Of a stretch of 64,000 nucleotides of DNA, positions 311 to 60,806 are shown piece after piece. The stretch is from assembly GCA_965263345.1 (NCBI GenBank), contig CBDHHC010000004.1, forward strand, positions 339,777-403,776, read 5' to 3'. A program made the translations under genes and the position numbers. Within the stretch, counting starts at the first letter, position 1. Every line of letters starts with the position of its first letter. The notes under the pieces were generated by a model. It saw nothing but the letters and a program-made list of their open reading frames with translations, was not told the origin of the DNA and ran no database searches. The stretch comes from Methyloligellaceae bacterium (GTDB lineage Bacteria; Pseudomonadota; Alphaproteobacteria; Rhizobiales; CBDHHC01).

Positions 311-395
311 TGGTGCGGGTGGGGAGAATCGAACTCCCACTCCCGAAGGAACGGGATTTTGAATCCCGCGCGTCTACCAATTCCGCCACACCCGC
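311..395 (-). tRNA. tRNA-Leu(CAA)
   Basis: Minus strand reads GCGGGTGTGGCGGAATTGGTAGAC...CGGGA-TTCAAAA-TCCCG...GTTCGATTC...CCCGCACCA: long variable arm, anticodon CAA, encoded CCA. Confidence 0.97.
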
Positions 396-2127: not shown

Positions 2128-2362
2128 GCCGATCTCTTGCTTTGAAAATCGTATAGTCAGTTTTGTCCTCTTACATGAAGGTTGATGGCAGCCTCATTTT
2201 TGTCATAAATCGACATGGTTGCGAAAAATTATCAAATTTTTAAAAGATTATTTTTCGCAAAAAAAGAATCATTTTTTTACTCGCCAAATTCTATTGATAA
2301 ACTGGTTTAGCTTACCAATATAATCCTTTCATCAAGAAGCTTTTTTTCAGTTAATAAAATTC

Positions 2363-2377
2363 TTAATAAATCGTTAA
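2363..2377. promoter_or_regulatory. CtrA-box-like site
   Basis: TTAA-TAAATCG-TTAA (TTAA-N7-TTAA), extra TTAA half-site at 2351, GANTC at 2381. Confidence 0.45.
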
Positions 2378-2484
2378 AACGAATCAAAATGCTTGCCATG
2401 TGTTTCAAATGACACATATTTTATGTCTGGTTTTTAGAGAATCTGCGAAAGTTTTCCTCTGCCAGAGGACTAAAAAAGTTATGG

Positions 2485-2500
2485 TTAACAAAGGGTTAAC
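2485..2500. promoter_or_regulatory. CtrA binding site
   Basis: TTAA-CAAAGGG-TTAAC, an exact TTAA-N7-TTAAC match. Confidence 0.6.
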
Positions 2501-2593
2501 AATTGTCAAAATTGGGACAGATACCGTTCACATTGTAAACATAATCTTGAGTAGAAATAAAACTCAACAAGGCGATAAAAAAACGCCAGGCAC

Positions 2594-2621
2594 TTGAAAG
2601 AACCAAAAGAGAACATATATA
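2594..2621 (+). promoter_or_regulatory. sigma70-type promoter with an alphaproteobacterial LexA (SOS) box in the spacer
   Basis: TTGAAA (2594-2599), GAAC-CAAAAGA-GAAC (2600-2614, GAAC-N7-GAAC), TATATA (2616-2621). Confidence 0.75.
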
Positions 2622-2661
2622 GGATTTATTATAAAACAAAAGTTAACAGAGAGTGAAATCC

Positions 2662-2865
2662 ATGAGTAAAGGGTCTACTTTTACACCAGTTGGAGCGGAA
2701 ACAAATAAGATTATCTCTAGAATACTTGAGAAAAGATCTGGAAATAATTTTAATACTTTAAATAGGAAAGAAATACTTGAAGTGAGAGGAAATGATAATA
2801 CCCCCAATATCAATTCTTCTGCGTCTCTTCAGCTTAATCTTTTCGAACATGCTGTAGGCAGTTGA
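2662..2865 (+). CDS. Small hypothetical protein (67 aa), probably SOS-inducible, with C-terminal QLNLF motif
   Basis: ATG at 2662 (alternative GTG at 2653) after AGAGAG and directly downstream of the LexA-boxed promoter; ends SLQLNLFEHAVGS. Confidence 0.6.
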   Translation: MSKGSTFTPVGAETNKIISRILEKRSGNNFNTLNRKEILEVRGNDNTPNINSSASLQLNLFEHAVGS

Positions 2866-2891
2866 ACATATAAGAACTGAGACAGGAGTTA

Positions 2892-2999
2892 ATGAAGTTA
2901 GGCAAATACATTCAAAAGAACAGAACCACCGATGGCTTCGTATGGCATAGTCCCGCGTTTCGTCGCCACCCTCTTGAATGTATTTGCCGCCAAATTTGA
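2892..2999 (+). CDS. Putative 35-aa peptide
   Basis: AGGAG RBS at 2884-2888, then MKLGKYIQKNRTTDGFVWHSPAFRRHPLECICRQI*. RBS spacing is short and the ORF is below the track cutoff. Confidence 0.35.
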   Translation: MKLGKYIQKNRTTDGFVWHSPAFRRHPLECICRQI

Positions 3000-3670
3000 G
3001 AGTAACAGGGAAAATTATCTGCCCCACTCTGTTACCCTCAATTTAAACATGAGCGTATTTGCTATTTCTTGCTCTAGCCCCCTCATGGAAATAGCAAAAT
3101 CATGTTGCAAGCGGAGTGTATCGAGTTTGCTTGTATTTAAGTAGTGTATGAGTTGCGTAAGTGTAGTAGAGTTAAGCGTTTTATTAAGTTTGCGTATTGT
3201 TGCGTTAAGAGTACATGGTTTTAATTGGTTTTGCGTATCCAGTAAGTTGCGTTGTGTAGCAAGACGTGAGTGTTTTAAAACGTCTTAGTATTCATGATGG
3301 TATGCGTTTTTTACCTGTGTTCATGAGTCTGTCTTATTCGTTGTGTAGAGTATCATGAGTAATGCGTACTTGTAGTGTTTGAGTATTTGTATCAGTTGAG
3401 TTGCGTATACGTATGAGTTATTGCGTAGTTGTATTGCGTAAGCGTAAAAAGTATTGAGTATCTGAGTAAGTTAGTATTGTTGCGTAAATTTAGTAGCGTA
3501 TTGAGTAAAGCAGTATTTTCATGCCCCCAAATACATGACTATGCTGTCAGTAAGTGTAAAGCGTATTGAGTATTAAACTATAAATAGCGTACCCCGTTAT
3601 AGGAATTATGCGGAAAACTCCGAACTCAGACTTATCTTACCCCTCAAGTCTGAGTTCGGTATTTCTATCT
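2998..3670 (+). ncRNA. Putative long structured non-coding RNA or 3' trailer with repeated G(C/A/U)GUA motifs and C-rich-loop hairpins
   Basis: No credible ORF; about 28 strand-biased GHGTA pentamers; hairpins at 2998-3039, 3046-3106, 3510-3547, 3578-3602 and 3620-3659 each with CCCC(C) in the loop; ends at a terminator. Confidence 0.55.
3620..3670 (+). terminator. Intrinsic terminator, probably bidirectional
   Basis: Perfect 14-bp stem CCGAACTCAGACTT/AAGTCTGAGTTCGG followed by TATTTCTATCT; lies 25 nt beyond the stop of the convergent TauE gene. Confidence 0.8.
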
Positions 3671-3684
3671 CTTCTGAAATCCTC

Positions 3685-4608
3685 TTAAACAACTACTGCT
3701 GATAATAATATCCAAATTGTACATAACCATTTTATTGGGTTAGCGCCAATGCGGGTTACTGTTAGACGAGCGATATATCCCCCGATTATTGCCCCTGGTG
3801 CTACCATTAAAGCAATATCTAATCTTAACGCGGGATTATCCCAGATAAAGAATGCGCAACATAAAACTGTTACAGATGTTGTCACAACAGCAAGTCCGAT
3901 TGCATCAACAGCGTCATATCTTCGTAAAATTAGATATACTGCTAAGAGCTCACCAACACCTATAGAAATCCACGAGACCAATACCCCTCCAGCAATGCCA
4001 ACGATTATCAAAGGAATGATCTCAAAATTTAAATTGTTTTCAGGGTTTCTTTCTGTTTTATTTCCAAACAATAAAGAAAAGAGCATGAAGCATCCAAGAA
4101 TTAATGAGAGATATTTAAATAATACAATTATATCATTAGACGCTTTTATATTGTAATGCAGACACAAAGCGGCGGAAATGCTTGAAAAGACACTCACCAA
4201 TATTGCAATGAAGTAAAAATTTGATGTGCTAAGACGACCCTTTTGGGGATTGGCTAGCCTATGGGATTGATAAGCCATTGATCCCATTGTCATACCAAAA
4301 CACTGAATTAAAATGCTCGATGTAAGTATCGAAGCATTTGACAGACCTAAATAATAAAAGGCAGGGACAAATATGATTCCTCCACCAACACCAGTTGCAT
4401 TGGCAAAAAAAGCTCCAAAAACTCCTAATAGGATGAGCCAAATATTCTGAAAAATAATGTCAGAGCTTAATAATGTTACGATTAAGCTCACACATATGAT
4501 TGGGTTAATAATTTTTATAAACCAAATAACTCTCAGACCGAGCCGGGTATATTCTTCGTTTGTTTTTGAAATATTATATTTTTGTAAAAGCATATTAAGT
4601 ATCACCAT
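3685..4608 (-). CDS. Sulfite exporter TauE/SafE family membrane protein
   Basis: GAFFANATGVGGGIIFVP and GGVLVSWISIGVGE repeats; multiple TM segments. True start may be downstream. Confidence 0.8.
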   Translation of the reverse strand: MVILNMLLQKYNISKTNEEYTRLGLRVIWFIKIINPIICVSLIVTLLSSDIIFQNIWLILLGVFGAFFANATGVGGGIIFVPAFYYLGLSNASILTSSILIQCFGMTMGSMAYQSHRLANPQKGRLSTSNFYFIAILVSVFSSISAALCLHYNIKASNDIIVLFKYLSLILGCFMLFSLLFGNKTERNPENNLNFEIIPLIIVGIAGGVLVSWISIGVGELLAVYLILRRYDAVDAIGLAVVTTSVTVLCCAFFIWDNPALRLDIALMVAPGAIIGGYIARLTVTRIGANPIKWLCTIWILLSAVVV

Positions 4609-5132: not shown

Positions 5133-8100
5133 TTATCCAAAATCAAACAGGAGTTGGTTTTTACGCTTTCGTTTTGTTGGATGTCTTGCGGTATCTGCCG
5201 CAAGATCTTCAATGCGATCAAACGGAACTTGATCTGCCTGAACCAATGATCTTTCTGCCTTAATTGATTTAATTGCTCCTTCCTGAATCAGGTGGAACTC
5301 ACCAACTTTTTGGTTTGGTAATACAGCTGCAGGATCAATACCCGTTTCGCTTGTAAATGCAGCTTTTAGTTTCCTTAAAGCTGTATCTTCCCTAACCTTA
5401 CCAATAAACCATGATGTTATCTGGTCTCTTGATTTATAGTCTAAGTCACCAGGACTTTGCGTTGCCAACATCAAGCCGATTCCTGCCGAGCGTGCTCGTT
5501 TAAGCAAACTTTCAAGAGGCTCTTTTGTTGCAGGTTTTGAATTTGCAGGGATGTATAAGTCAGCTTCATCAAACATGATAACTGCTTGAAGATCTTCATT
5601 TGGGTTTCTTTGACAAAAACGTAGAGCTTCTGCAAGGAACTGGGCGACCCAAAAGAGGATATTTTCATTGTCACCCAAGAAACCGGTATAAATTACAGAA
5701 AGACGTGTTTTATCTGAGCGTGCATATTTACCCAATCCCAAAAGAGAGTCCATTGTTAGAGGTTCCCCGCCTCCTTCAAACAAGGCCCAATTTCTATGAC
5801 GTAATGAATCAAGCTGTGCAACAAGATCTCTTCTTAGTTTACCAGAAGGGTCCATACGATATGTTTCATCGACAACTTCGCTATGGTCATCCTCAAGAAG
5901 ACCTATCAGGTCAGCAAGTGTGACTTCTCTTGCACTGATTGCCCCTAATAAGCGAAGTGCAACAGTCAGAATTCCACCCTGTCTTTGATGCGTCGCTGAA
6001 TTACCTAGGTGTAACATATCACTTAAGGCAGCAGCTGATACATTTGCCAATTGTTGCTGTTCATGAGCGGGAAGATCTGCAACACCATTTGGCATCAATG
6101 TGATGGATATTGGACGTCCTGAAATGCGACCAGGCGTGTAAACTGCTACATCTAAATTTTCTTTTAGTTTTTCACGAATTTCGCGCCGCTCATCACTTAA
6201 ACTTAAGTCATCTTCCCAAACTTCTGGGTTTGCATAGCTACATAAATCACCCTTGCGGTCGATGAGGATGACAGGGATCTCTCTATCCAAAAGCTGTTCG
6301 ATGATGTTCAGAGCAAGTGTTGTTTTACCACTACCTGAGCCACCTAATACTGCAGCATGACGTTTTAAGGTATTTACAGGGAAAATGACTTGTTCTTTTT
6401 TATTTTCAATTACCCGACCGACATTAATTTTATCTGGATCAGAAACCAGTTCTTCTATTTCATTTTCTAATACAAGTTCTTCAGTTTGTTGTTCAGACTG
6501 TTCGCCATTTTGCTCTTCTGCTACCAAGTCATTATTTTCCATATCAATTGACTTGTTGGCAAAATCAACATGATGGATGTTACTTTCAGCATTTTGCATC
6601 TGCCCATTAGCAGACGTTCCATTGATGTGATGAACTTGTTGAATTGTTTGATCTGCGGTATTTTCCACCATTTTGATTGGTTGAGCAGACTTTGGTTGCG
6701 TTGTCTCTGTTAAATCCAATCTTAGTAGATAACGAATACCTGGCAGATCTTTTAAGATGCGCGAAACTTTCATCCAATCTGAAAAACCTGTCTGGCTTTT
6801 ATTCGCATCCCTAAATTCCTGAAGTGTGATTATACGTTCCCACTCATAGATCGGAATGACAAGAGTATGACCACCATCCTGATTAAACTGTCTTAATAAA
6901 TCACTTGTTGCACTTTTCTTGCTTGGTGGAAAATCACTTGTTCTTAAAATAATTGAGTCTTTATTTTCCGTGCTGCATAGAACTTTTTCCAATTGTCTCT
7001 TTAATCCGCCCCCCTGGCTCCCTTTATTACAAACAAAAAGTCTATATTCGACTGTCGGCATGTCTGTATATTCGAGCGTTAAATCAATCGCAGAAACACC
7101 TTCAATCCAAGATGGCTCAACTGATACGCGCGTATCAGCCATTCCTTCTTCGCGGCTCAATAGCAGGGCAGAGGTAAGGATATTAATTAACTCATCTTCA
7201 TCAGATGGGATATCGGCCTCATGAGCAGAGGCAAAATGCTCCCATTTCTGCTGGATCATACTGACTTCATTTTCTTTTTGTTGATCCGGCATGAGTGTTG
7301 GAGAGACTTTTTGAATTTTGTCTTCTTCAGCTATCTCTTCACCACATATTTCACGACGTTTTATTTCAGCAGCTTCTAGAAGACGTCTGGTTGAGAGGCC
7401 CGCCATTTCGTTGACAAAGGTATCGCCAAATACCTGTTCGACCTCAGCTTCAGTTGTATCTTCTGACTTTGACACAATGTGCTTCAGTCGGCGCTTAAGG
7501 ATAAGCCGTGCTTCTTCTTCCGTGCGAGATTCTCGCAAGATAACCGGGCCAGCTTTCTCAATTCTATCTACAAATGATTGGGGTAAAAATTCTCTCATTT
7601 GAAAATAAAAATCATCTAAGCAGGAAATAAGTATTATTGCGGATGGCACTCGGTTCGCAATTTGTATTAAGTCTCTTATTGCTTTTTGGAACCGCTCTTC
7701 AGCATCATCATAAAACCTTAAGTCTTCAACCTGATCAATACAAAAAACCATTGCCGCTTTTTCAGTCGTCCACATTAAACGGCCTATTGACTCAATAATC
7801 TCAAACGAACGATCTTCTCCATCATTTGGGTCTAATGCAGCAACGGACTCACTGCTTAACTCATTCAAATGACGACCATAAAGATACTGCCTGATACGTT
7901 GATCAATTTTTGGATCATTACGCTGAAGATAAAGCAGTGCCCTTACAATATTGATATCTAATTCTTGATCTATGAATTTATCAGATGAGACGATACCATC
8001 TGCAATATTCATGATTAAACGTGCCAAGTCTATGTTTGACAAATCCTCATCACGTAGTTTGCTCAGATCCTCTTCTGGGATGAGTTCTGCGTCAGAAACC

Positions 8101-8516
8101 AATGCATTGGTCAGTCTGGACAAACTGTTTGCAGATGCCTGTATCGGACTATATGGTTTTTCTAAGGAATTTATTAGCCTGCGCAAATAGTAGTCTGCGT
8201 AGTTTTTAATGTCCGGTGTCATTTGCGCATAGCCAAAATAACCTTTATCAGCGCAATGGGAATAGGACCTTAATGCCCTAATGAGATGTGTTTTCCCTGC
8301 CCCTGATTGCCCTTGGAACATTAAGATACGAGATTGTACCTGAGTATTTCCCTCAGTAATTGCAAACAATAAATCTAAATATTTTTTACGCGCGGTACGA
8401 TGCACCTGCTCTACATCAAAATAGTCCGCTTTCCATACATCGTCTTCCCAGGTGATATTATGATCAAAGACCCAAGAAGCTTGTTCGGAACACATTAAAT
8501 TCTGAACGCTGTCCAT
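5133..8516 (-). CDS. Double P-loop protein: N-terminal AAA-like ATPase plus C-terminal HerA/FtsK-like (DUF87/DUF853) ATPase
   Basis: GQSGAGKT and VFCIDQVE; then RHAAVLGGSGSGKT, IMFDEAD and RARSAGIGLMLATQSPGD (HerA signature). Confidence 0.85.
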   Translation of the reverse strand: MDSVQNLMCSEQASWVFDHNITWEDDVWKADYFDVEQVHRTARKKYLDLLFAITEGNTQVQSRILMFQGQSGAGKTHLIRALRSYSHCADKGYFGYAQMTPDIKNYADYYLRRLINSLEKPYSPIQASANSLSRLTNALVSDAELIPEEDLSKLRDEDLSNIDLARLIMNIADGIVSSDKFIDQELDINIVRALLYLQRNDPKIDQRIRQYLYGRHLNELSSESVAALDPNDGEDRSFEIIESIGRLMWTTEKAAMVFCIDQVEDLRFYDDAEERFQKAIRDLIQIANRVPSAIILISCLDDFYFQMREFLPQSFVDRIEKAGPVILRESRTEEEARLILKRRLKHIVSKSEDTTEAEVEQVFGDTFVNEMAGLSTRRLLEAAEIKRREICGEEIAEEDKIQKVSPTLMPDQQKENEVSMIQQKWEHFASAHEADIPSDEDELINILTSALLLSREEGMADTRVSVEPSWIEGVSAIDLTLEYTDMPTVEYRLFVCNKGSQGGGLKRQLEKVLCSTENKDSIILRTSDFPPSKKSATSDLLRQFNQDGGHTLVIPIYEWERIITLQEFRDANKSQTGFSDWMKVSRILKDLPGIRYLLRLDLTETTQPKSAQPIKMVENTADQTIQQVHHINGTSANGQMQNAESNIHHVDFANKSIDMENNDLVAEEQNGEQSEQQTEELVLENEIEELVSDPDKINVGRVIENKKEQVIFPVNTLKRHAAVLGGSGSGKTTLALNIIEQLLDREIPVILIDRKGDLCSYANPEVWEDDLSLSDERREIREKLKENLDVAVYTPGRISGRPISITLMPNGVADLPAHEQQQLANVSAAALSDMLHLGNSATHQRQGGILTVALRLLGAISAREVTLADLIGLLEDDHSEVVDETYRMDPSGKLRRDLVAQLDSLRHRNWALFEGGGEPLTMDSLLGLGKYARSDKTRLSVIYTGFLGDNENILFWVAQFLAEALRFCQRNPNEDLQAVIMFDEADLYIPANSKPATKEPLESLLKRARSAGIGLMLATQSPGDLDYKSRDQITSWFIGKVREDTALRKLKAAFTSETGIDPAAVLPNQKVGEFHLIQEGAIKSIKAERSLVQADQVPFDRIEDLAADTARHPTKRKRKNQLLFDFG

Positions 8517-60245: not shown

Positions 60246-60806
60246 GTGATAGCAAATGCAGGATCACCCGATGCTTATCCGGCCTTGGTTTTAAATGCTG
60301 ACTATAGGCCTCTTAGCTATTATCCTCTGTCACTTTGGAGCTGGCAGGAAACAGTAAAGGCTGTGTTCCTTAACAGGGTTAACATCGTCTCAGAATATGA
60401 AAGATGTGTTAACAGCCCTAGTTTCCAGATGAAGTTGCCTAGTGTTGTTTGTCTTAAAAACTATGTTCGCCCGGCACTTTACCCAGCTTTTACACGCTTT
60501 AACGTGTTCTTACGTGACAGATTTACATGCCAATATTGCGGTTCTATGGAAGACCTTACATTTGACCATCTTATTCCACGCTCAAAAGGTGGACTAACAA
60601 CATGGGACAATGTGGTTACTGCCTGTGCACCTTGTAATTTGGCTAAAGGTGGAGACATGCCCGAGGATGTTGGCATGATTCCAGATCAAATGCCTTACAG
60701 GCCAACAGTTCATGAACTCCATCGTAATGGTCGGTTATTCCCACCTAATTACCTTCATGACAGTTGGATGGACTTCCTGTATTGGGATACAGAACTTGAA
60801 CCTTAG
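60246..60806 (+). CDS. HNH endonuclease (conserved McrA-like)
   Basis: LVLNADY.PL, RD.FTCQYCG, TFDH.IPRS.GG..W.NVV.AC..CN..K motifs; GAGGAG RBS. Confidence 0.93.
   Translation: MIANAGSPDAYPALVLNADYRPLSYYPLSLWSWQETVKAVFLNRVNIVSEYERCVNSPSFQMKLPSVVCLKNYVRPALYPAFTRFNVFLRDRFTCQYCGSMEDLTFDHLIPRSKGGLTTWDNVVTACAPCNLAKGGDMPEDVGMIPDQMPYRPTVHELHRNGRLFPPNYLHDSWMDFLYWDTELEP

Follow-up and report, generated by a model that had tools for sequence, protein, structure and literature searches.

Overall organization of the locus

The locus lies within a window of 64,000 nucleotides, the whole stretch of DNA that was analysed, from the genome of a Methyloligellaceae bacterium (G000). It was compared with the genomes of a congener (G001), a member of the window's own family (G002) and further relatives. 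Positions 2594–3676 form a single conserved unit, comprising a −35 element, a GAAC-N7-GAAC box, a 67-residue open reading frame (ORF), a structured RNA, a tract of G(C/A/U)GUA motifs and a 14-bp terminator. The original prediction of one unit with a LexA-type box between the −35 and −10 elements, and with a long motif-rich non-coding stretch, agrees with what is found here: the anatomy can be read directly in the sequence, and both the unit and the motif-rich stretch recur in relatives. The features are as follows.

2594–2599, plus strand: −35-like hexamer TTGAAA, read from the sequence; TTGAAG at the equivalent place in G001
2600–2614, plus strand: LexA-type box GAACCAAAAGAGAAC (GAAC-N7-GAAC), an exact match that occupies the −35/−10 spacer
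2616–2621, plus strand: putative −10-like element TATATA, 16 nt past the −35 and kept in G001
2649–2653, plus strand: Shine-Dalgarno-like GAGAG, 8 nt 5′ of the ATG, with identical letters in G001
2662 (ATG) to 2863–2865 (stop), plus strand: sORF1, 67 residues by translation (MSKGSTFTPVG...NDN...QLNLFEHAVGS)
2758–3027, minus strand: ORF of 89 residues over the hairpin, no counterpart in G001
2901–2988, plus strand: hairpin 1, with a 15-bp outer stem (2901–2915/2974–2988) and an inner hairpin with its apical loop at 2942–2959
2932–3144, plus strand: ORF of 70 residues over the hairpin, no counterpart in G001
2996–3041 and 3047–3105, plus strand: two hairpins from single-sequence folds, the second with a C-rich loop, GCCCCCUCAUGG
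3110–3600, plus strand: motif tract with approximately 20–26 copies of G(C/A/U)GUA by motif counts, commonly as (U)UGCGUA(A) or UUGAGUA
3520–3537, plus strand: small hairpin CAUG-CCCCCAAAUA-CAUG with a C-rich loop, read from the sequence and also present in the fold
3594–3613, plus strand: short hairpin CCGU...GCGG preceded by GCGUA, from an eight-locus alignment and RNAalifold
3620–3676, both strands: terminator hairpin with a 14-bp stem (3620–3633/3647–3660), a 13-nt loop and a U-rich tail

The prediction that no known RNA family would account for the locus held in Rfam. At the gathering score the sole match in the 64-kb window is a tRNA at 314–395, with none at the unit and none in 10 related loci, and at E values up to 10 the region 2300–3900 gives chance-level matches only. 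In particular, neither the CcsR family or its repeated hairpins nor the CsrB/RsmZ families are matched at the unit. A blastn comparison of the unit with 40 relatives gave matches confined to parts of G001, and full-text literature searches found no description of the unit.

Putative promoter region

The box in the window is one of 20 sites in the genome that match GAAC[AC]N6GAACA, and others of these sites lie upstream of genes for an IMS/Y-family polymerase, a comM-like protein, a radical-SAM protein and ssb. The same genome carries a LexA gene, and the upstream regions of its recA and lexA genes contain one-mismatch boxes. According to an excerpt of PMC9578287, the LexA consensus of Caulobacter is GTTCN7GTTC. 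The bare pattern GAAC-N7-GAAC is not enriched genome-wide (79 found, approximately 97 expected), so that the weight of the box rests on its context and conservation and not on the pattern alone.

Of the 26 loci with the homologous unit, 12 have an exact box upstream of it, with a chance expectation of approximately 0.02 per locus. The box lies approximately 33–46 nt 5′ of the sORF1 start in G000, G050, G006, G059, G103 and G143, and directly 5′ of the tract in G004, G427, G419, G429, G432 and G063. Among the 14 loci without an exact box, one (G001) has a single-mismatch version of GAAC-N7-GAAC, five, including G002 from the window's own family, have none even when one mismatch is allowed, and eight were scanned for exact matches only. 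An EcfG-type promoter (GGAAC...CGTT) was considered and rejected, as it fits two loci only. A scan for consensus promoters and terminators listed neither end of the unit. The promoter escaped because the rules of the scanner demand T at position 6 of the −10 hexamer, and the terminator because its loop has 13 nt compared with a permitted 3–8 nt. The unit is predicted, from its sequence, to be LexA (SOS)-controlled: LexA would bind the box inside the promoter, and DNA damage would induce transcription.

A small protein with a clamp-binding motif

The product of sORF1 comprises a conserved N-terminal segment, an NDN motif and a C-terminal motif of the β-clamp-binding type. The proposal of a 67-residue ORF with a QLxLF motif proved to describe a genuine gene. 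Homologues of 62–67 residues occur at the equivalent position, with the frame kept, in eight genomes, and the ratio dN/dS is 0.076 for the closest pair (G103 and G143) and 0.39 for G000 and G001. Six further protein clusters belong to the family, one found by word search (P0003) and five new in a library of 1.84 billion proteins. Among the matches of the representative search, P0010 is a truncated, 53-residue form of sORF1 and P0009 was discarded as a repeat-protein false positive; a weak match in G196 (L012) also appeared in the sORF1 search. sORF1 matched no family in Pfam or NCBIfam and had no informative neighbour in the Atlas. DUF1127 is absent from it, with 0 Pfam families for the G000 and G001 versions. 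The AlphaFold model has low confidence (pLDDT of 59, and in the low 50s at QLNLF), and sORF1 is a mostly disordered, hydrophilic protein, not a membrane peptide.

The β-clamp-binding pentapeptide has the form QL[SD]LF, with examples in UmuC (QLNLF) and Hda (QLSLF). In sORF1 of G000, QLNLF makes up residues 57–61 of 67, and G001 has QLSLF. A Qxx[LM]F motif is present in the last dozen residues of 11 of the 14 aligned family members; distant members have QLRMF or QYQMF or lack the motif, which in this 14-member alignment is absent from G050 and G006.

In the predicted complex of sORF1 with the genome's own DnaN, QLNLF is placed in the hydrophobic cleft between clamp domains II and III, with predicted contacts between residues 56–61 and 63–64 of sORF1 and residues 177–182, 248–253, 326, 350–352 and 366–371 of DnaN. 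The complex has a score of 0.68, compared with 0.00 for the best of three controls, a difference that may only mirror motif likeness, since clamp–peptide complexes exist as solved structures. In calibration, 58 of 80 solved complexes reached this mark, as did 2 of 110 mismatched pairs; at least 36% of contacts agreed across the three runs, with a partner pLDDT of at least 43. On this modelling, sORF1 probably grips the replication clamp, and it would be expected to do so in the cell.

A conserved RNA hairpin downstream of sORF1

A second, 35-residue ORF had been proposed at 2892–2999. Its letters are present, but it is not a gene and corresponds to the 5′ half of a covarying RNA hairpin (hairpin 1): at the homologous position an ATG is found in none of four relatives, and three of the four have in-frame stops.

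Hairpin 1 was aligned across 14 genomes, and its apical loop ends in an invariant GCGU in all 14 sequences. RNAalifold reports compensatory change in 17 of 23 pairs. A separate count gives compensatory change in 16 of 22 pairs and pairing in 92.5% of cells, compared with 32–44% when the partners are slid along the alignment. None of 500 shuffles matched the covariation, a count that is not a probability because the 14 sequences are related. The stems contain 39 G·U cells and 5 A·C cells, and therefore 92.5% of cells pair on the plus strand compared with 81.4% on the minus strand. Under the covariance model R1, G000 scores 108 bits on its plus strand and 19 bits on its minus strand; a further model, R2, matches the window at 2897–2996. 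These comparisons suggest that the downstream part of the unit acts as RNA, on the plus strand.

The motif tract

Between 3100 and 3620 the plus strand contains GCGTA 12 times, GAGTA 8 times and GTGTA 6 times, which together account for 26 of the 98 copies in the whole 64-kb window; of the 103 reverse complements in the window, none falls in this region. Across the 4.0-Mb genome, G[CA]GTA reaches 19 per 400 nt in the tract, 6 at the next best place and approximately 0.38 in the background, and the tract is unique, with one locus per genome. Over eight loci, GCGTA occurs 60 times against 4.7 expected (13-fold) with no reverse complement, and GAGTA 48 times against 6.9 expected with a single reverse complement. 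These two words, and not GGA, are those enriched. Over 26 loci there are 422 motif matches on the sense strand and 101 on the antisense strand, and the motif strand is that of hairpin 1 in every locus with hairpin 1, the sole exception being G053 with three matches on each strand.

The motif is kept on a constant strand across at least 10 families and in loci with G+C contents from 37% to 67%, although the tracts themselves cannot be aligned between genera. By these comparisons of sequence, the motif is under selection. The number of copies ranges from 8 to approximately 29, and tract length is likewise highly variable; the near-identical loci L010 and L031 differ by one 10-nt unit. Spacings of 10–11 nt are common, and in G006 and G103 they line up in short phased runs, but spacings of 5–7 and 13 nt are equally common. 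The copies are dispersed and not head-to-tail, Tandem Repeats Finder detected no tandem array in the tract, and no palindromic or longer operator-like consensus emerged. By local folding the copies are no more single-stranded than the remainder (0.10 compared with 0.13; Mann–Whitney p = 0.58). In the window's family the tract is located 3′ of the hairpin, whereas in Hyphomicrobium-type loci it comes immediately after the box, on the 5′ side of the hairpin; it is therefore always within the same transcription unit.

The tract in the window is poor in C (9% in 3120–3520). Strong depletion is confined to G000, G001, G002 and G427, and Rho avoidance was therefore rejected as a general feature. On reading of the loci, no support was found for Chi sites (outside the tract, GCGTA in the window has no strand skew, at 24 compared with 32), for RfaH ops-like GTAGCGTG or TRAP-like GAG triplets, or for a tRNA-Thr anticodon loop mimic or Ter/Tus-like sites.

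Minor hairpins and terminator

Single-sequence folds of G000 and G001 contain a matching series of three hairpins with C-rich loops, and the G001 counterpart of the hairpin at 3520–3537 is UUGC-GCCCCCAAC-UGCAA. In the post-ORF regions, CCCC occurs 28 times against 7.7 expected, in seven of eight loci. The hairpin at 3594–3613 has a stem of 4 bp with weak covariation.

The predicted 14-bp terminator can be read in the sequence with its stem, 13-nt loop and U-rich tail. The U-run that follows the stem is UAUUUCUAUCUCUUCU on the plus strand and AGUUUUCC on the minus strand, and with this second U-tract the hairpin probably also ends the convergent TauE-family gene (3685–4608, minus strand). Compensatory change is found in 11 of 18 predicted pairs of the terminator hairpin across eight loci; most relatives lack a U-rich tail on the plus strand. 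In six loci (L006–L011), this hairpin coincides with the end of a convergent HNH ORF, whose last residues are TELEP, and in L007 the 3′ arm of the terminator encodes the C-terminus of the HNH ORF.

Occurrence in related bacteria and a second small ORF

Related loci were found by scans with IUPAC patterns and with the hairpin models. Of 151 genomes of the order, 17 contain the hairpin together with a sense-strand tract; among 150 genomes elsewhere in the class the number is 0. A scan of genome contigs returned five loci, all identical to loci already in the set, and a scan of metagenomes three: one has a stretch in common with L009, and the remaining two are near-identical to loci L010 and L011. 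A match of model R1 in G012 (L041) was judged false, as it falls in coding sequence rich in repeats, where the architecture is missing.

The wider family shares, as its conserved core, the hairpin and the (U)UGCGU(A) tract. The QLxLF ORF is confined to a few families, and the exact box to the 12 of 26 loci described above. Most relatives have, in place of sORF1, a different ORF of 71 residues (ORF2). In 14 of the 18 loci found only via the hairpin models, an ORF2-type frame lies 3′ of hairpin 1, with the tract upstream as a long leader, and L042 (G427) contains an ORF2-like frame read by eye. ORF2 is absent from G000, G001, G002 and G059, where the only ORF precedes the hairpin and tract. The ORF2 protein family contains at least 128 clusters, all labelled "hypothetical", and the record titles of relatives name Hyphomicrobium. 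Its structure model is confident (pLDDT of 85.5) and consists of three helices, with no Foldseek match in the Protein Data Bank at E ≤ 0.001.

Proposed function

We propose that the locus is a LexA-repressed unit making one RNA of approximately 1.05 kb with two jobs, serving as the mRNA of a clamp-binding protein and as a conserved non-coding RNA; we place the probability of this reading at about one half. LexA would repress the unit as part of the SOS response, and on induction a single RNA would be made, read through the tract. Its 5′ part would be the mRNA of the mostly disordered 67-residue protein, whose QLNLF would insert into the hydrophobic cleft of the β sliding clamp, so that after DNA damage the protein may compete with partners for the clamp or recruit them to it, with the conserved N-terminal segment as a candidate adaptor or effector end. 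The 3′ part, approximately 800 nt, would be a conserved non-coding RNA of Hyphomicrobiales that ends at a bidirectional terminator and that would comprise a covarying hairpin showing GCGU(A) in its loop, the hairpins with C-rich loops and approximately 20–26 more motif copies.

With its many copies, flexible in how many there are and how they are spaced, the motif array is most like a platform for multivalent binding, which would make the RNA a sponge or a scaffold. A bolder form of this proposal, which we hold only tentatively and consider unlikely to be correct as a whole, is a new class of SOS-controlled regulatory RNA, in which, after DNA damage, the (U)UGCGUA array, with a further copy displayed by the long hairpin, titrates or assembles an RNA-binding factor or self-associates, and which is fused here to the mRNA of a clamp-binding microprotein. 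Self-association is conceivable because UGCGUA can self-pair through G·U. If true, damage would couple the replisome and post-transcriptional control via one ribonucleoprotein. Alternatively, the tract and hairpin could be a cis-acting untranslated region only, which sets the stability, processing or translation of the neighbouring small ORF and does not act in trans. The element never occurs without a small ORF physically linked to it, and an ORF2-type frame follows hairpin 1, with the tract as its leader, in the 14 of 18 model-only loci and similarly in L042. This explanation nevertheless seems unlikely, given that hairpin and tract are kept in the four genomes without ORF2 (G000, G001, G002 and G059), downstream of their only ORF, that the tract changes place with respect to the ORFs from lineage to lineage while the motif is kept, and that 20 or more copies of one motif far exceed the needs of known cis elements.

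Quite unlikely is a role as the precursor of base-pairing small RNAs derived from the 3′ untranslated region, with the hairpins with C-rich loops as anti-Shine-Dalgarno seeds that processing would release, on the pattern of the CcsR/CcaF1 operon, and the GCGUA tract as a spacer or processing signal. A layout of a small ORF with downstream small RNAs is known in alphaproteobacteria (described in an excerpt of PMC8034643), the hairpins of G000 and G001 carry C-rich loops (CCCCCUC, CCCCCAA and CCCCUCA) at equivalent places, and the enrichment of CCCC in post-ORF regions (28 against 7.7) extends to seven of eight loci. However, these loops cannot be aligned beyond the genus, as the GCGUA motif and hairpin 1 can, sORF1 contains no DUF1127, the RNA has no match in Rfam, and the motif array would be left unexplained. 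That the array instead acts as double-stranded DNA, with direct-repeat protein sites serving titration, a nucleoprotein structure or a polar barrier and with transcription incidental, appears improbable. The frequent 10–11-nt spacings with their phased runs in G006 and G103, the change of copy number by whole units and the single locus per genome would suit such sites, but spacings of 5–7 and 13 nt are equally common, no palindromic or longer operator-like consensus is present, the tract lies between promoter and terminator, downstream of genes in the window's family, and the motif occupies the strand of a G·U-rich covarying hairpin and occurs inside the loop of that hairpin. Least credible, and very improbable, is a decaying, slippage-prone filler without function between convergent genes: although the tract is unalignable between genera and varies greatly in length and copies (8 to approximately 29), a single motif of 5–6 nt persists on a constant strand in at least 10 families and over 37–67% G+C, and GCGTA is enriched 13-fold with its reverse complement absent.

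Relation to known systems

The two-job unit proposed here has partial counterparts in several described systems. In the CcaF1 (DUF1127)–CcsR1-4 'cuckoo RNA' operon of Rhodobacter sphaeroides, a small ORF and repeated RNA modules are induced by stress (PMC8034643, in part). The unit resembles that operon in having a small ORF followed by repeated RNA elements on one transcript, as predicted here, and differs from it in that sORF1 contains no DUF1127 and the RNA has no Rfam match. The loops of the CcsR hairpins carry the motif CCUCCUCCC, and CcsR RNAs are controlled by oxidative and general stress sigma factors; unlike these CCUCCUCCC-loop hairpins, the repeated element of the unit is a GCGUA-type motif of 5–6 nt, and its predicted control is by LexA. 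In the sponge RNAs CsrB/RsmZ and CrcZ, many copies of a short motif are present, partly in loops and with variable spacing, at one or few loci per genome. The unit likewise has many copies of a short motif, variable in number and spacing, at one locus per genome, but its motif is G(C/A)GUA and not GGA or A-rich, and its RNA is fused to an mRNA.

SidA of Caulobacter, SulA and YneA are SOS-induced small proteins that act on the replication or division machinery, and SocB of Caulobacter is a clamp-binding toxin. sORF1 is similarly small, predicted to be damage-induced and to act on this machinery, and, like SocB, it is a predicted clamp binder. Unlike the membrane peptide SidA it is hydrophilic and disordered, and its gene has no antitoxin or adaptor gene beside it. 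It shares QLNLF or QLSLF with the clamp peptides of UmuC and Hda, but is a 67-residue protein without a catalytic domain. The tisB/istR, dinQ/agrB and symE/symR loci combine LexA-controlled small ORFs with a functional non-coding RNA. The unit also has a small ORF under predicted LexA control and a non-coding RNA; unlike loci of the tisB/istR type, it shows neither a hydrophobic toxin nor an antisense RNA, and its RNA is in cis, in sense orientation and approximately 800 nt long. To our knowledge, few SOS-controlled non-coding RNAs are known, and none has been described for alphaproteobacteria.

The locus yields an RNA family that Rfam does not contain, which covaries well and carries an unusual motif array specific to one strand, and a protein family absent from Pfam and NCBIfam, with a canonical clamp peptide and a conserved N-terminal segment. 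If the predictions hold, the unit would connect DNA damage with occupancy of the clamp and with a titration step based on RNA. A second uncharacterized family, the 71-residue ORF2, is tied to the same RNA in Hyphomicrobium. This genus includes cultured species, and the RNA part of the unit is therefore probably accessible in culture through the relatives that carry ORF2.

Architecture of the unit

The unit occupies window positions 2594–3676. As the original prediction had it, an exact GAAC-N7-GAAC box lies between −35- and −10-like elements, with TTGAAA on its 5′ side and TATATA on its 3′ side, and a 14-bp terminator stem with a U-rich tail follows a motif-rich tract. Both the promoter and the terminator were missed by a consensus scanner because of the scanner's own rules, and Tandem Repeats Finder reported no tandem array in the motif tract.

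Features of the unit in the window, with the basis of each assignment in brackets
2594–2599, plus strand, TTGAAA (sequence reading)
2600–2614, plus strand, exact GAAC-N7-GAAC box (sequence reading)
2616–2621, plus strand, TATATA (sequence reading)
8 nt 5′ of the ATG at 2662, plus strand, GAGAG (sequence reading)
2662–2865, plus strand, 67-aa open reading frame (ORF), sORF1, from its ATG to its end (translation)
2901–2988, 2996–3041 and 3047–3105, plus strand, three hairpins, the first being hairpin 1 (fold)
~3110–3600, plus strand, C-poor tract rich in GCGTA, GAGTA and GTGTA (sequence)
3520–3537 and 3594–3613, plus strand, two small hairpins
3620–3660, plus strand, 14-bp stem with U-rich tail (fold)

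Conservation across the order

The architecture recurs in relatives. In the congener G001 the order is TTGAAG, GAAT-N7-GAAC, a 66-aa ORF with the C terminus QLSLFDYAVGS, hairpins, a GCGTA/GAGTA tract and a terminator; by blastn it aligns with the genome of the window (G000) only at the promoter, over the start of the ORF and at the first hairpin. A profile of sORF1, searched against six-frame translations of 401 genomes of the order, identified eight genomes and one weak match. All eight loci have an ORF of 62–67 aa followed by a GCGTA/GAGTA-rich stretch on the sense strand, and a DsbB-family gene upstream; in six, the unit reaches a hairpin overlapping the end of a convergent HNH-endonuclease gene. 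Five of these loci are labelled Methyloligellaceae, Hyphomicrobiaceae, Hyphomicrobiales and "Bacterium MnTg02".

A hairpin model built from 14 sequences found hairpin 1 in 17 of 151 sampled genomes of the order, spanning at least ten families, and in none of 150 from the rest of the class, both sets being samples, so that absence holds for the genomes searched. At the 18 loci found through the hairpin only, sORF1 is absent and the hairpin is preceded by a (U)UGCGU(A) tract. The common core is therefore the hairpin with its one-strand motif tract; the small ORFs vary, and the tract is found on one or the other side of the hairpin, though in every case within the unit.

Most related loci carry a different ORF, ORF2, 3′ of hairpin 1 (usually ~71 aa, pattern NP.QW.QA.G.AR...GG.P.DA...W). 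A script detected a frame of this type in 14 of the 18 hairpin-only loci, four of which also have a convergent HNH gene just past the unit; at a further locus (L042, genome G427) reading by eye showed a similar ORF with HNH after it. ORF2 stands beside sORF1 in G050 and G006 and is absent from the entire G000 genome. It comprises at least 128 clusters, each labelled "hypothetical" and several from Hyphomicrobium, and neither Pfam nor NCBIfam has a family for it. ORF2 is modelled with confidence as three helices (pLDDT 85.5); the fold search gave no PDB match at E ≤ 0.001, its weak, non-significant rows being helix-turn-helix-type proteins.

ORF2 at four related loci (locus coordinates)
L040, 1671–1883
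L007, 2080–2304
L038, 1692–1904
L042, ~1711–1923

Hairpin 1

The 35-aa ORF originally predicted after sORF1 is not a gene: at the homologous position an ATG is found in none of four relatives and in-frame stops in three, and the region forms the 5′ arm of a long helix. A first hairpin model, built from five sequences, recovered further copies and scored 108 bits on the plus strand of G000 versus 19 on the minus strand. RNAalifold, applied to a MAFFT alignment from 14 genomes, yields a 15-bp outer and a 7-bp inner stem. The helix covaries, with changes on both sides in 16 of 22 pairs, and 92.5% of cells are paired, versus 32–44% when partners are slid by 1–3 columns; these values were reached by 0 of 500 shuffles, a count that is not a probability because the sequences are related. 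The pairing is also strand-biased: the alignment holds 39 G·U cells versus 5 A·C cells, and therefore the 92.5% on the plus strand falls to 81.4% on the minus strand. All 14 sequences have GCGU, mostly extended to GCGUA, at the end of the inner hairpin's apical loop; this is the motif of the tract.

Motif tract

The predicted motif-rich tract is present and strand-specific. Between 3100 and 3620, GCGTA, GAGTA and GTGTA occur 12, 8 and 6 times (26 of the 98 in the 64-kb window), and their reverse complements account for 0 of 103. Across the 4.0-Mb genome, G[CA]GTA reaches 19 per 400 nt in the tract and 6 at the next best place. In the post-ORF regions of the eight sORF1 loci, GCGTA was observed 60 times versus 4.7 expected (reverse complement, 0) and GAGTA 48 times versus 6.9 (reverse complement, 1). 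The two bases preceding a motif are mostly U or A, the following base is A or U, and the commonest spacings are 7, 10–11 and 13 nt. Near-identical loci differ in copy number by one 10-nt unit. Over all 26 loci, motif words number 422 sense versus 101 antisense, and G053 (69% G+C) is the only locus with no strand bias. Folding predicts no greater single-strandedness for the motif copies than for the sequence around them (0.10 versus 0.13).

The 67-aa protein

The predicted 67-aa ORF is retained in the eight genomes, with a dN/dS of 0.076 for the closest pair and 0.39 between G000 and G001. No family in Pfam or NCBIfam matches it, nor is there a useful neighbour in Atlas. A word search added one cluster (P0003), and a library of 1.84 billion proteins five new ones (P0005, P0006, P0007, P0008 and the truncated P0010), together with P0004, which is closely related to the G001 query row; P0009 was rejected as a repeat-protein false positive. 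Conserved parts are an N-terminal MS..(S/T)F(T/M)(P/H)(I/V)G.(E/A)A... and an NDN motif, and in 11 of 14 aligned members Qxx[LM]F falls within the last dozen residues (QLNLF, QLSLF, QLRMF or QYQMF). AlphaFold gives a low-confidence helix at residues 10–42, the rest being flexible (pLDDT 59).

The predicted complex of sORF1 with the genome's own DnaN scored 0.68, versus 0.00 for the best of three controls, which reports likeness of the motif rather than binding in the cell, because clamp–peptide complexes have already been solved. In the predictor's calibration, 58 of 80 solved complexes reached this mark, as did 2 of 110 mismatched pairs; at least 36% of contacts agree between runs, and partner pLDDT is at least 43. 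Residues 56–61 and 63–64 of sORF1 are predicted to contact DnaN residues 177–182, 248–253, 326, 350–352 and 366–371, the usual peptide cleft. On this modelling, clamp binding is reasonably probable; a clamp-binding peptide is the only feature shared with known clamp partners.

LexA-type box

A review (PMC9578287) gives GTTCN7GTTC as the LexA operator of Caulobacter. The bare GAAC-N7-GAAC is not enriched genome-wide (79 observed versus ~97 expected). Its extended form, GAAC[AC]N6GAACA, has 20 sites, 12 of them outside long ORFs; four of these 12 precede genes for a Y-family polymerase, a comM-like Mg-chelatase-type ATPase, a radical-SAM protein and SSB, typical alphaproteobacterial SOS genes. 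One-mismatch versions lie at recA and lexA of the same genome. The box is exact 33–46 nt 5′ of sORF1 in 6 of 8 loci and immediately 5′ of the tract in 6 of 18 hairpin-found loci (12 of 26 in total). G001 has one mismatch, five loci including G002 have no box even at one mismatch, and eight further loci lacking an exact box were scanned for exact matches only. The window's box is partially conserved and resembles those at SOS genes; LexA control of this unit is likely, and is not taken to be universal in the family.

Extended boxes outside long ORFs also occur at C21:133867, C24:145781, C24:277438 and C14:45093–45134 of G000, the last being two boxes 40 nt apart near the end of a fumarate hydratase ORF. 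These sites, whose neighbours include an integrase-like ORF and a RhuM-family gene, are candidate SOS regulon members.

A conserved element, GACAGATACCGTTCACATTGTAAACATAATC, lies at 2516–2548, ~50–80 nt 5′ of the −35. It is near-identical in G001 and recognisable in G002, G050 and G014 (..GTTCACAA.GT..). Part of it, GTTCAC-ATT-GTAAAC, is an imperfect inverted repeat, and the element may serve as a second operator or as an upstream promoter element.

Proposed mechanism and alternatives

We read the unit as an SOS-controlled RNA that encodes a clamp-binding small protein and carries a trans-acting 3′ RNA, with a probability of about 0.5. LexA would repress the promoter, and DNA damage would yield an RNA of ~1.05 kb; the small protein would be translated and occupy the clamp cleft, its N-terminal segment being the effector or adaptor end, and the 3′ RNA, acting in trans, would offer a GCGUA-binding factor a multivalent platform. 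In principle, UGCGUA could pair with another copy of itself through two G·U pairs. A sponge or scaffold role is rather doubtful.

Less probably, the motif array could be a set of sites at the DNA level, or the tract functionless filler. Both the motif and sORF1 are under selection, and action at the RNA level is probable. Two other, less probable proposals are compatible with the SOS-controlled dual RNA: the tract and hairpin may be a purely cis-acting untranslated region, or the unit may be a precursor of small RNAs with C-rich seeds.

The layout resembles the CcaF1–CcsR operon, and the motif array resembles CsrB/RsmZ-type sponges. Membership of either type was rejected: Pfam finds in sORF1 no DUF1127, a defining feature of CcaF1–CcsR, the motif differs from those of both, and Rfam matched no known family in the window's unit or in ten related loci. 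No description of such a unit was found in the parts of articles returned by a full-text literature search. The unit may be filed as a combination of known kinds, namely a dual-function mRNA/non-coding RNA, a motif-array RNA and an SOS microprotein, with an RNA and a protein family both absent from the curated libraries searched.

Surroundings of the unit

In most relatives the convergent HNH gene directly adjoins the unit; in the window it lies at 60264–60803 (plus strand), ~57 kb away, with no hairpin after its stop. The 3′ end of the HNH gene in relatives is resembled by the window's terminator, which still ends in GAGTTCGGTAT; this points to a breakpoint at the terminator loop, from an inversion or rearrangement. 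In G006 (locus L008, orientation coordinates ~2283–2385) two tandem copies of the terminator hairpin separate the tract from the HNH gene. The sole Rfam match in the window is a tRNA gene at 314–395 (minus strand). At 5133–8516 (minus strand), a gene absent from the equivalent position in G001 encodes a 1127-aa protein with two P-loop regions, an AAA_16/STAND-like N terminus and a HerA/DUF87-like region at residues 697–1030; the protein is possibly a defence-type or mobile ATPase.
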